The translations under genes and the position numbers were made by a program. Shown piece after piece: positions 37,053 through 44,922 of a DNA stretch of 64,000 nt (positions within the stretch are counted from its first letter, which is position 1; every line of letters starts with the position of its first letter). The notes beneath the pieces are model-generated. The model saw only the letters and a program-made list of their open reading frames with translations. It did not search any database and was not told the origin of the DNA. Source of the DNA: Hydrogenobacter sp. (GTDB lineage Bacteria; Aquificota; Aquificia; Aquificales; Aquificaceae). Where the stretch lies: the NCBI GenBank assembly GCA_041287335.1, contig JBEULM010000047.1, positions 23,445 through 87,444 on the forward strand, read 5' to 3'.

Positions 37053-37922
37053 TCAAAATATGTAGCCAAAGCCTGCATAAACCCCATCCTTAAAATCCGA
37101 AGGTAAGGTTGAAGACCTTCCCCTGTTTAAGTTGTTATATCCATAAGTGTACACATGAAAGTCTAAATTTTTTGTAAAGTAATACTTCATACCTATGGAT
37201 ATGTCAAATTCTCTTTTAGTCCCCGCTAAACCATCGTGTGATGTAAAGAATTTATTACCATACTTTCTCTGAAAATAAAAATCCATATTAACACATAAGG
37301 AAAATTTAGGATTAGAAATATCTCCTATCAAAAATACCTCATCTTTCGTGCCTATACTCAAAAGCGGAGCATAAGGTATCAAATTTGGTGCAATTCTATT
37401 ACCATAGAAATAAACTTTTGAGTAGAGGGAGGCAGAGATCTTCTTGTAAGAATAAGCGGTTTTTAGTAAAATTCCGAAATTATAATTGTCGTTTGAGGGG
37501 ATTTCACTTTCTTCATCTGCGTATTGAACTACCTGACTTGATGTAATTTGTGGTTTAAAGGGTTTAAGGCTCTGATAGTCTTCCGCAAAAGCTCCTATAT
37601 TGATCCTTGAATTACTGTCTTTGTATATAGCATAAGAAATATCGGTATACATATCAAGCTCAAGGGGTCTATTTTTTAAAGTACCTGCTCCGGTAATAGC
37701 AGATCCATAATACGCTACCGCTTGAAAACTCCCAAACCACTTATCGTAAGATAGGTTAAGTTTATAGTCTAAGCTTAAGTTTGGTTTAAGTGTGACACTC
37801 CTTATACCGGCTAATCTTCCAGAAAAAGAATTTACATCTATCTGATTTTTAATCTCCAAAGCGTAAATAGTTGGTGCAATAAAGAGCATACATGGGATCA
37901 CAATGGTCAACCTTTTTAGCAT
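37053..37922 (-). CDS. Hypothetical outer-membrane beta-barrel protein, 289 aa
   Basis: Signal peptide MLKRLTIVIPCMLFIAPTIYA, alternating aromatic strands, C-terminal GVYAGFGYIF; TATAAT 7 nt before ATG 37922. Confidence 0.7.
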   Translation of the reverse strand: MLKRLTIVIPCMLFIAPTIYALEIKNQIDVNSFSGRLAGIRSVTLKPNLSLDYKLNLSYDKWFGSFQAVAYYGSAITGAGTLKNRPLELDMYTDISYAIYKDSNSRINIGAFAEDYQSLKPFKPQITSSQVVQYADEESEIPSNDNYNFGILLKTAYSYKKISASLYSKVYFYGNRIAPNLIPYAPLLSIGTKDEVFLIGDISNPKFSLCVNMDFYFQRKYGNKFFTSHDGLAGTKREFDISIGMKYYFTKNLDFHVYTYGYNNLNRGRSSTLPSDFKDGVYAGFGYIF

Positions 37923-38008
37923 CGCAATGATTATATCACGTAAAGAAATCTTTGCGCAAAGTTTTGAGCTTGGAGCATCGGGAATAACTCTTTTTTTATG
38001 ACGGAGAC

Positions 38009-38035
38009 ATAAATACATGTTATAATTTGTCAAAT
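38009..38035 (+). repeat. Left copy of long target-site duplication
   Basis: ATAAATACATGTTATAATTTGTCAAAT; 26/27 identical to 38995-39021. Confidence 0.9.
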
Positions 38036-38994
38036 ACGTTGAGTGAGAAATAGGTTCATTGGAATACCTCCTTTCTGAAGAAGCTATACCAGATGGCATA
38101 AGCATATAGGTAAGTAAGCAAACATATCCAGTGCCTCCACCTGCTTGAATAGTTAAAGAGCTTGAGCATGGAAAATACACCCTCCACCTTCTGCCTTTGC
38201 GATTTATCCTCCTTACTGCTACAAACCTTCACAAGCTCACATCCCCTGTAGCCTCTATCACCTATAAGCTCAAACCTCTCAAGCAAACTCCTAAGCCATA
38301 AACTCTTTGAAAACCTCAACCTCAAAGACCTCACCTCATGATAGCTTGCAGGATTAAACCAAAGGTCATAAGGAGCTCCATCTGTATCACACACCACCAT
38401 CACAAGCACTCCATAGTAAAGTTCCTTAAACTTGACCCTTTGTTTGTAATGCTGACTATAAAGGTTTCTATTCCTTACACCCCAAAATTGCTTGCCTGAC
38501 ATACGCCTTATCTTCTGTGTCCTTGCTCTATTTACATTGGCTACAGGTAAAAGTGTTCCATCTACCACAAGCCTTATCTTTTTACCGCTTGCCAGCTTCA
38601 AAAGTATGAGCAAGCTTACTCTATAGAGCATATACTCTCTCAAAAGCCTATAGACCCTTTTGACCCTTGATTTTCTGAAGATGTGATAGGACATTAGCTT
38701 GTCATCAATAATAAATCTTGCGAGTTTAAGGACAGGCATTCCCGTGAGTAAGGAGAGTATCAAAAGGGAAGCTATTTGCTCATCGGATAACTTAGGCTTT
38801 CTGCCTGCTTTTTGTGTATAGCCCATAGTTTTTGAGAAGGTTTGCATGGTGTTTAGGATTTTGTGATATACTTGGAGTAGAAGCATTTTTATACCTCCTT
38901 GTGAGGTATTGGGTAGGGTAGTATAAAGCCACTGCCCTACCCGCTTCTTATTTTAGCACCAGACTTTGACAAAATAGAATTTCTCACTCAACGT
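38036..38994 (-). mobile_element. IS982-like insertion sequence, about 959 bp
   Basis: Perfect terminal inverted repeats ACGTTGAGTGAGAAAT (38036-38051 and 38979-38994, extendable to 18 bp), single DDE transposase, flanking direct repeats. Confidence 0.88.
38056..38886 (-). CDS. DDE transposase, IS982/IS4-superfamily-like
   Basis: VDGTLLP, YYG...GDRGY, RQKVEGVFSMLK; AAGGAGGT SD. Confidence 0.9.
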   Translation of the reverse strand: MLLLQVYHKILNTMQTFSKTMGYTQKAGRKPKLSDEQIASLLILSLLTGMPVLKLARFIIDDKLMSYHIFRKSRVKRVYRLLREYMLYRVSLLILLKLASGKKIRLVVDGTLLPVANVNRARTQKIRRMSGKQFWGVRNRNLYSQHYKQRVKFKELYYGVLVMVVCDTDGAPYDLWFNPASYHEVRSLRLRFSKSLWLRSLLERFELIGDRGYRGCELVKVCSSKEDKSQRQKVEGVFSMLKLFNYSSRWRHWICLLTYLYAYAIWYSFFRKEVFQ

Positions 38995-39021
38995 ATAAAT
39001 ACATGTTATAATTTGTCAGAT
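38995..39021 (+). repeat. Right copy of long target-site duplication, containing extended -10 TGTTATAAT
   Basis: ATAAATACATGTTATAATTTGTCAGAT directly upstream of tRNA-Val. Confidence 0.9.
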
Positions 39022-39022
39022 A

Positions 39023-39097
39023 AGGCGCGTAGCTCAGAGGGAGAGCGCTGGCCCGACACGCCAGAGGTCGGCGGTTCGAGTCCGCCCGCGCCTACCA
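39023..39097 (+). tRNA. tRNA-Val(GAC) with encoded CCA
   Basis: AGGCGCG/CGCGCCT acceptor; CTGGC-CCGACAC-GCCAG anticodon arm (C33); GGCGG-TTCGAGT-CCGCC T-arm. Confidence 0.95.
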
Positions 39098-44898: not shown

Positions 44899-44922
44899 TA
44901 TATGCTGAGTGAGAAATTCCTC
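44899..44922 (-). repeat. Degenerate solo copy of the IS terminal repeat
   Basis: 44900-44919 ATATGCTGAGTGAGAAATTC is 18/20 identical to IS end ATACGTTGAGTGAGAAATTC. Confidence 0.6.

Follow-up and report, generated by a model that had tools for sequence, protein, structure and literature searches.

A small insertion sequence of Hydrogenobacter with long target-site duplications that often contain a −10 promoter box

Introduction

How did an insertion sequence (IS) located directly upstream of a tRNA gene come to be flanked by a 27-bp direct repeat, and why does this repeat contain a promoter element? The question is raised by a stretch of 64,000 nucleotides from Hydrogenobacter sp. (Aquificota; GenBank assembly GCA_041287335.1, contig JBEULM010000047.1, positions 23,445 to 87,444 of the forward strand), the whole of which is called the window here. 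In this window, a 959-bp IS encoding a predicted DDE-type transposase stands before the gene of tRNA-Val(GAC), with one copy of the repeat on each side. The length of the target-site duplication is generally treated as a fixed signature of transposase architecture and is below about 10 bp for IS982- and IS5-type enzymes. In a preliminary description of the locus, made from the sequence alone, the element was called IS982-like, the repeat was ascribed to an unusually wide staggered cut or an atypical integration pathway and it was suggested that −10 boxes are the target. We propose, with a probability of roughly 70%, that the element is an intact and recently mobile DDE insertion sequence, and that its ends are joined to the target 23 to 38 bp apart by a symmetric transposase complex, which duplicates an AT-rich target with a near-central −10 box.

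The element and its 27-bp repeats

The locus comprises the following features.

38036–38994, minus strand: insertion sequence, 959 bp, the sole full copy in the 1.67-Mb genome
38036–38051, plus strand: terminal inverted repeat (IRR) on the 3' side of the transposase gene, ACGTTGAGTGAGAAAT, common to all relatives
38979–38994, plus strand: terminal inverted repeat of the opposite end, ATTTCTCACTCAACGT, conserved in relatives
38009–38035, plus strand: left 27-bp target-site duplication, ATAAATACATGTTATAATTTGTCAAAT, which holds TGTTATAAT, with TATAAT at 38021–38026
38995–39021, plus strand: right 27-bp target-site duplication, ATAAATACATGTTATAATTTGTCAGAT, with TATAAT at 39007–39012; G39019 is the mismatch
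39023–39097, plus strand: tRNA-Val(GAC), whose core promoter is duplicated; it starts 2 nt past the right repeat
37998–38003, plus strand: −35-like hexamer ATGACG of the tRNA-Val promoter, now associated with the left repeat copy only

The raw direct repeat (38009–38036 and 38995–39022) is 28 nt long and 96% identical; its 28th base, an A, could also be counted as base 1 of the IS, and the duplication proper is 27 nt. As had been noticed in the preliminary description, the two 27-nt copies differ by a single mismatch (A38033 versus G39019), reading ATAAATACATGTTATAATTTGTCA(A/G)AT, and both of them contain the extended −10 sequence TGTTATAAT. The inverted repeat (38034–38051 and 38979–38996) extends over 18 nt with 100% complementarity. 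Comparison with the relatives assigns its outer AT to the duplication and leaves the 16-nt ACG…CGT as the true ends of the IS, because relatives whose duplications lack an AT start or end (loci L002, L004, L021 and L030) keep ACG…CGT. The perfect terminal repeats of 16–18 bp reported earlier are thus real, the longer figure including two bases of the duplication.

The 27-nt repeat was found nowhere else in the 1.67-Mb genome, and no other 28-nt repeat is present in the region, so that a chance origin is excluded. Between positions 37900 and 39150, the best promoter-like site is ATGACG–17 nt–TATAAT, with TG before the −10 and 10 of 12 matches.

Empty sites and mobility of the element

We compared Logan contigs of public metagenome runs with the window with respect to the empty site, depth and junctions. 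In run X3, a contig of 4,358 bp, about 95% identical to the flanks, passes from the left flank through one copy of the repeat into tRNA-Val without any element. A contig of 2,913 bp from run X15, which belongs to a different study, is likewise empty with a single repeat copy. Since the empty sites of two independent metagenomes carry one copy, and not the two that had been considered possible for an empty allele, the 27-bp repeat is a true target-site duplication. The −35 hexamer ATGACG is also present in both empty-site contigs, and in the window it is found just beyond the duplicated segment.

In runs X5, X6 and X8, the element occupies the tRNA-Val site and also other sites at equal per-copy depth, and it is therefore mobile within this species. 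In X5, the depth of the IS is about 1000 versus about 294 for the flanks, and other junctions are present. In the X3 sample, the tRNA-Val site is empty while the IS sits at other sites. Related hot-spring populations have three to four copies of the IS, versus one in the genome of the window. We also observed that position 39019 is A in X3, X5 and X6 and G in the empty allele of X15; the mismatch between the two repeat copies is therefore an ordinary population polymorphism.

Compared with short end pieces of the identical IS, the Logan contigs gave junctions of only two further sites. At one further site (X3, X5 and X8; loose ends at window positions 38034 and 38995), the flanks, AAAGTGACCCTTTATAATTTTAGTAT and AAAGTTACCCTTTATAATTTTATTAT, show two mismatches and are perhaps not a cognate pair. 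This could reflect one insertion into each of two paralogous promoters, or a duplication that has since diverged.

No answer on the empty site came from the other six species of the genus, whose flanks are only about 78% identical and whose left flank is not syntenic. Upstream of the orthologous tRNA of genome G005, a single TGATATAAT is present, at the same distance as in the window.

Long duplications in the relatives

As the genome of the window holds no further full copy, the duplications were tabulated in relatives of the element. At 65–73% nucleotide identity, such relatives are present in 15 of 61 related genomes, and by protein profile they were detected in 37 of 178 genomes of the phylum. 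In total, 26 different duplications of 23–38 bp (mean 27.2), with an AT content of 70–92%, were obtained from six genomes and a single metagenome contig. Fifteen of the 26 come from the complete genome G032, which has 22 near-full copies, 21 of them with both ends; 14 of these 21 are flanked by cognate repeats of 23–38 bp, and one additional 27-bp repeat is split between two copies (L028 and L029). The duplications measure 24, 26 and 33 bp in G060, 25, 27 and 32 bp in G052, 24 bp in G002 and 30 bp in the metagenome contig. Two copies in G093 show a reciprocal swap of their repeats, which were entered as 25 and 28 bp; these swapped repeats and the split repeat of G032 are likely the result of recombination between IS copies.

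Each copy of the family bears a different repeat sequence, and the long duplication is a family trait, not a peculiarity of the tRNA-Val copy. It is shared by the relatives in G002, G032, G052, G060, G093 and the metagenome contig; short duplications, which would have spoken against the preliminary interpretation, were seen in none of them. Short derivatives (176–465 bp) resembling miniature inverted-repeat transposable elements (MITEs) in G001, G005, G031 and G032 showed no clear duplications.

At locus L026 (G032:C1, about 1600515–1601710), a full IS and a MITE-like derivative of 208 bp, which has the same ends, are arranged in tandem upstream of a selB-like gene. Exactly one copy of a 23-bp duplication lies between the MITE-like derivative and the full IS, and the same cut site has therefore been used twice. 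In G060 (C1:1003415–1003985 and C1:1005833–1005988), we found fragments that are 97–99% identical to the version of the element in G032. The genome that carries them belongs to a different family of the order, which points to a recent horizontal transfer across family borders.

Cut sites and the −10 box in the target

The 52 duplication ends were aligned, each being read from inside to outside. Position −2 is A in 47 of them and position −1 is T in 42, while the base immediately outside is G in 33 and T in 14. The consensus of the cut sites is C|AT…AT|G, that is, AT|G at both ends.

When both strands are counted, 14 of the 26 duplications contain a perfect TATAAT, versus 4.4 ± 1.8 in composition-preserving shuffles, and none of 2000 shuffles reached 14. 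In 11 of the 26, this box is central, lying 8–15 nt from both ends. The control consisted of segments of the window's own genome, 23–34 bp long, with AT at both ends and at least 74% AT. The box is present in 13–15% of these segments (25% if intergenic) and is central in only 2–6% (6% among the intergenic ones). An independent set of 72 distinct orphan flanks, which have no cognate partner, gave a similar picture: a perfect box lies within 34 nt in 37 of them, 32 of 44 boxes start 7–13 nt from the IS end, and the AT content falls from 80% over the first 27 nt to 64% further out. Relative to the transposase gene, the box has no preferred orientation (5 versus 8). The suggestion that −10 boxes are hit is thus supported statistically; the box may be recognised directly or its duplication selectively tolerated, as we consider below.

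Self-complementarity of the duplications does not exceed chance (0.373 versus 0.394 in shuffles, P 0.85), and a palindromic or inverted-repeat target, as reported for IS1630, was therefore rejected.

Eight duplication ends fall exactly on the ATG of a long outward-reading open reading frame (ORF), and the ORFs that start in this way include those which, from our own reading of the translations, we take to be argD and selB. We rejected the idea that leaderless genes begin at the duplication ends: such an ATG is present at only about 8 of 42 ends, yet 33 of 52 show AT|G, and AT|G is therefore taken as a sequence preference and not as a start-codon rule.

Many target sites are real promoters. The argD promoter was hit independently at L020 (G032) and at L197 (G086:C2, at a contig end), with junctions 9 bp apart. 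It is empty, with a single copy, in two other species of that genus, and it looks like an insertion hot spot.

At L030 (G032:C1, about 1286538–1287503) and L188, a copy of the IS sits in the promoter of a putative IS607-type serine recombinase gene, identified by eye from a MerR-like N-terminus and a YARVSS motif. The same flank is seen at another IS copy, so that one mobile element is found on the promoter of another.

How the target may be chosen

We favour a direct, symmetric recognition of the −10 box over mere survival of insertions under selection. A symmetric transposase complex would sit on the flexible, easily bent TATA-like centre with a footprint of at least about 23 bp, and each IS end would attack the first suitable AT|G step beyond this footprint. 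The duplications show that the two ends are joined to target phosphates 23–38 bp apart (27 here), at 5'-AT steps usually with G outside, around a central TATA-like box in either orientation; repair of the two single-stranded gaps would then copy the stretch between the joins, which is the core promoter. Such a footprint would account for the sharp minimum of 23 bp (8 + 6 + 9), for the tail up to 38 bp and for the two-fold symmetry without orientation preference.

Because the duplicated segment is the core promoter, the neighbouring gene keeps an adjacent extended −10. At the tRNA-Val locus, the right copy leaves TGTTATAAT adjoining the gene, followed by the last 9 nt of the duplication. It is plausible from the sequence that tRNA-Val keeps a promoter in this way, with the extended −10 and without the native −35, and the insertion may be harmless to the host. 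The left copy, which has the native −35, reads inwards, antisense to the transposase gene, and a terminator-like hairpin (38910–38943) stands in its path. More tentatively, and at somewhat less than even odds, we suggest that the element and its relatives form an undescribed Aquificota IS family in which a sigma-70-type −10 box is the centre of the target, cuts are made about 8–15 bp on either side at AT|G and a core promoter is copied at each move.

Could selection alone have produced this pattern? The transposase would then need only AT-rich DNA with AT steps, and in these compact genomes, about 94% of which lie under ORFs, only intergenic insertions that duplicate a promoter would survive. 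In the window's own genome, 78–80% of the AT-rich, AT-ended segments lie in ORFs, whereas the insertions with examined surroundings are intergenic, which shows that insertions are filtered or that something more is required of the target. Several duplications without a good central box also fit with selection. However, promoter retention needs no central box, and yet the box is central in 11 of the 26 duplications and is found 7–13 nt from the IS end for 32 of the 44 boxes in orphan flanks, although only 6% of the intergenic candidate segments have a central one. In addition, the sharp floor of 23 bp and the absence of orientation bias are more readily explained by a geometric constraint than by selection, which by itself leaves the bases at the cut sites unexplained. 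We therefore regard selection alone as unlikely.

A further explanation is that the insertion is guided by the RNA polymerase holoenzyme bound to the promoter, in a closed or open complex, the IS ends being joined at the edges of the DNA that sigma and core hold or open; the duplication would for this reason span about −22 to +5 round the start site. The duplication indeed ends 9–13 nt downstream of the −10 box, just beyond the expected start site, and the eight ends on the start codons of apparently leaderless genes are what such guidance would give. From general structural knowledge, however, the DNA of an open complex from about +3 to +20 is inside the polymerase cleft and poorly accessible. 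Moreover, a promoter bound by polymerase is asymmetric, which does not suit the two-fold symmetry of a target with AT|G at both ends and a central box in either orientation, and the duplication contains no −35 element. Guidance by polymerase thus seems quite improbable to us. We give next to no credence to repeats that existed before the insertion or that form the core of an att-like site-specific recombination site. The size of the repeat, 27 bp, is within the range of att cores and a tRNA gene is adjacent, but the element ends in inverted repeats and encodes a DDE-type transposase instead of an integrase, and this explanation is refuted by the single-copy empty alleles together with a repeat sequence that differs for every copy of the family.

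Several points weigh against the explanation that we favour. About 25 full-length copies on contigs of metagenomes or metagenome-assembled genomes (MAGs) have no cognate repeat; we tentatively put this down to assemblies that mis-join the flanks of a multicopy repeat, or to IS–IS recombination, and the target signature is present on each of their flanks by itself. A good central box is missing in L009, L180, L185 and the split duplication of L028/L029. The control for box frequency was taken from the window's own genome and not from G032, which is the main source of the duplications. Enrichment in promoters could partly reflect tolerated insertions, the survivors being filtered by selection. 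Finally, the footprint model is an inference only.

The transposase and its leader

Three further features lie within the element.

38056–38886, minus strand: intact transposase gene, 276 amino acids (aa), preceded by AAGGAGG; predicted catalytic residues D109, D210 and E235, plus K242
38891–38947, minus strand: predicted structured leader of the transposase mRNA, −36.3 kcal/mol, z −4.2
38910–38943, plus strand: terminator-like site, a hairpin which is the plus-strand view of leader hairpin 1

In an alignment of 20 full-length homologues, D109, D210 (in GDRGY) and E235 are invariant and K242, seven residues after E, is near-invariant (at least 90%). A Pfam scan of the window protein gave no significant match, and a few relatives show some similarity to DDE_Tnp_1 or DDE_Tnp_4. 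Among named families, NCBIfam IS982 (NF033520) matches best, with 42 bits versus a cut-off of 130 (E 7e-11) and a match to profile positions 1–168 of 243 only; all 20 aligned members match this model weakly (E 1e-11 to 1e-12). The IS5 models come second, IS5_4 with 18.5 bits versus 140 and IS5_3 with 14 versus 110, the best E value for IS5_4 among the members being 1e-9. When the family was compared by hhalign with the type IS982 transposase (Lactococcus plasmid NC_008506), only 52 columns round the second D were aligned, with a probability of 55%. A tblastn search against 72,556 plasmids, which are rich in IS982 copies, found nothing.

A search of 1.84 billion representative proteins gave 501 matches, which comprise two full-length clusters at 50% identity, the remainder being fragments. 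Nearly all matches with a named source are "hypothetical protein" from MAGs of Aquificota hot-spring populations. Judged from these sequence searches, the transposase clade is small and almost confined to Aquificota, with IS982 and IS5 as remote relatives.

The AlphaFold model of the protein has a pLDDT of 84.6, and its order of strands and helices fits an RNase H-like fold. Among solved structures, Tn5, Mos1 and Metnase come closest, each as a weak match (E > 0.05). The element combines the general attributes of DDE (RNase H-fold) transposases, namely a D/D/E triad whose catalytic role is predicted, the modelled fold, inverted repeats and a target duplication.

In the leader of the transposase mRNA, the first predicted hairpin is long and exposes a TATACT box in its loop, and the second pairs the Shine-Dalgarno sequence. 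The relatives have GGG..TATAAT..CCC hairpins at the equivalent place of their leaders. These hairpins may serve regulation, or they may offer a second place to bind for a putative protein recognising TATA-like DNA.

Comparison with known families

All 70 ISfinder members of the IS982 family covered by a review of 2020 have duplications of 0–10 bp and none comes from Aquificota; the family is defined by the absence of a conserved K or R 6–7 residues after the catalytic E (PMC7335449). The element resembles IS982 in its size of about 1 kb and in its single transposase ORF of about 280 aa, its 959 bp and 276 aa being within the ranges of 0.85–1.3 kb and 240–330 aa (PMC7335449). With respect to the IS982 end consensus, 5'-AC(N)6T(N)5TT, the AC and T9 match, positions 15–16 are AT and not TT, and a TT is one base off at the transposase-proximal end. 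In contrast to IS982, however, the duplications are 23–38 bp (27 here) instead of 0–10 bp, K242 is present seven residues after E235, and the profile score of 42 bits is below the family cut-off of 130. Since it departs from IS982 in several defining features, the element should not be filed as an IS982 member. Of the label IS982-like, the remote similarity can be kept but membership cannot, given the score, the K after E and a Pfam scan that returned nothing.

With IS5 and PIF/Harbinger-type elements, the transposase shares the GD(K/R)GY motif at the second D and the E-x6-K pattern. IS5 elements make duplications of 2–9 bp at short specific targets. Unlike them, the proteins studied here score far under the IS5 family cut-offs.

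Very long duplications are known from other IS. In the IS1202 family, duplication length is fixed for each subgroup, at 5–6, 16–17 or 27–28 bp, and Q replaces K or R after E (bioRxiv 10.1101/2022.12.17.520857); according to a second account, IS1202 elements are about 1.5 kb with ends of 24–26 bp (PMC10132070). The subgroup with 27–28 bp resembles our element as a DDE IS with very long duplications, whose duplication-less copies were also ascribed to IS–IS recombination. It differs in that our element has 959 bp, 16-bp ends, a K after E and duplications that vary from 23 to 38 bp even within one genome, and no IS1202-type similarity was detected in the Pfam and NCBIfam library scans. For IS1634/IS1549, formerly part of IS4, duplications range from 8 to 514 bp depending on the copy (PMC2266710). 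The duplications described here are likewise long and variable, but unlike those of IS1634/IS1549, elements of 1.5–2 kb with another transposase and with 5–6 bp in most family members, they stay within a narrow range of 23–38 bp with a sharp minimum and defined bases at the cut sites. IS1630 of Mycoplasma fermentans, from the IS30 family, reportedly has duplications of about 19–26 bp and is said to target and duplicate inverted repeats. Its transposase belongs to a different family, and our duplications are not self-complementary. There is no sequence kinship between the element and these three long-duplication systems, IS1202, IS1634/IS1549 and IS1630.

In the literature on insertion sequences of Aquificales, we found no description of the clade or of its target (ISfinder was outside this comparison), and a 23–38 bp duplication of promoter boxes appears to be undescribed for this kind of transposase.

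A transposase of 276 aa whose joins lie 23–38 bp apart at a defined motif offers a compact, presumably thermostable system for the study of long staggered insertion. For IS1634/IS1549, the origin of the long duplications has been explicitly called unexplained in the literature. If the −10 box is indeed recognised, the element would follow a simple transposon lifestyle in a genome almost without spare DNA, landing only on promoters and rebuilding them by duplication. Together with IS1202- and IS1634-type elements, it would then point to a general and independently evolved link between very long duplications and promoter targeting, in which neighbours are not silenced. In genome annotation, repeats of such length are easily overlooked or taken for att sites. 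A possible use of the element would be as a promoter-seeking insertion tool in thermophiles.

Neighbouring sequences

On the minus strand, a mechanically called ORF of 375 aa (37053–38180) runs into the end of the IS; its true start is likely the ATG at 37929. From this start, the predicted product has a signal peptide and is outer-membrane-like, and the gene is divergent from tRNA-Val, at about 65 bp in the empty allele.

Solo sequences resembling the IS end exist, as the preliminary description had noted, at window positions 44900–44917 and in genome contigs C27 and C13, at C27:8575–8592 and C13:46914–46931 (ATATGCTGAGTGAGAAAT, ACACGCTGAATGAGAAAT and ATACGTCAGGTGAGAAAT), with no partner end within reach. 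They had been cited in support of a promoter-targeting transposon system, to which they add little. TATAAT-rich DNA precedes the first two, and all three are probably remnants of older related elements.

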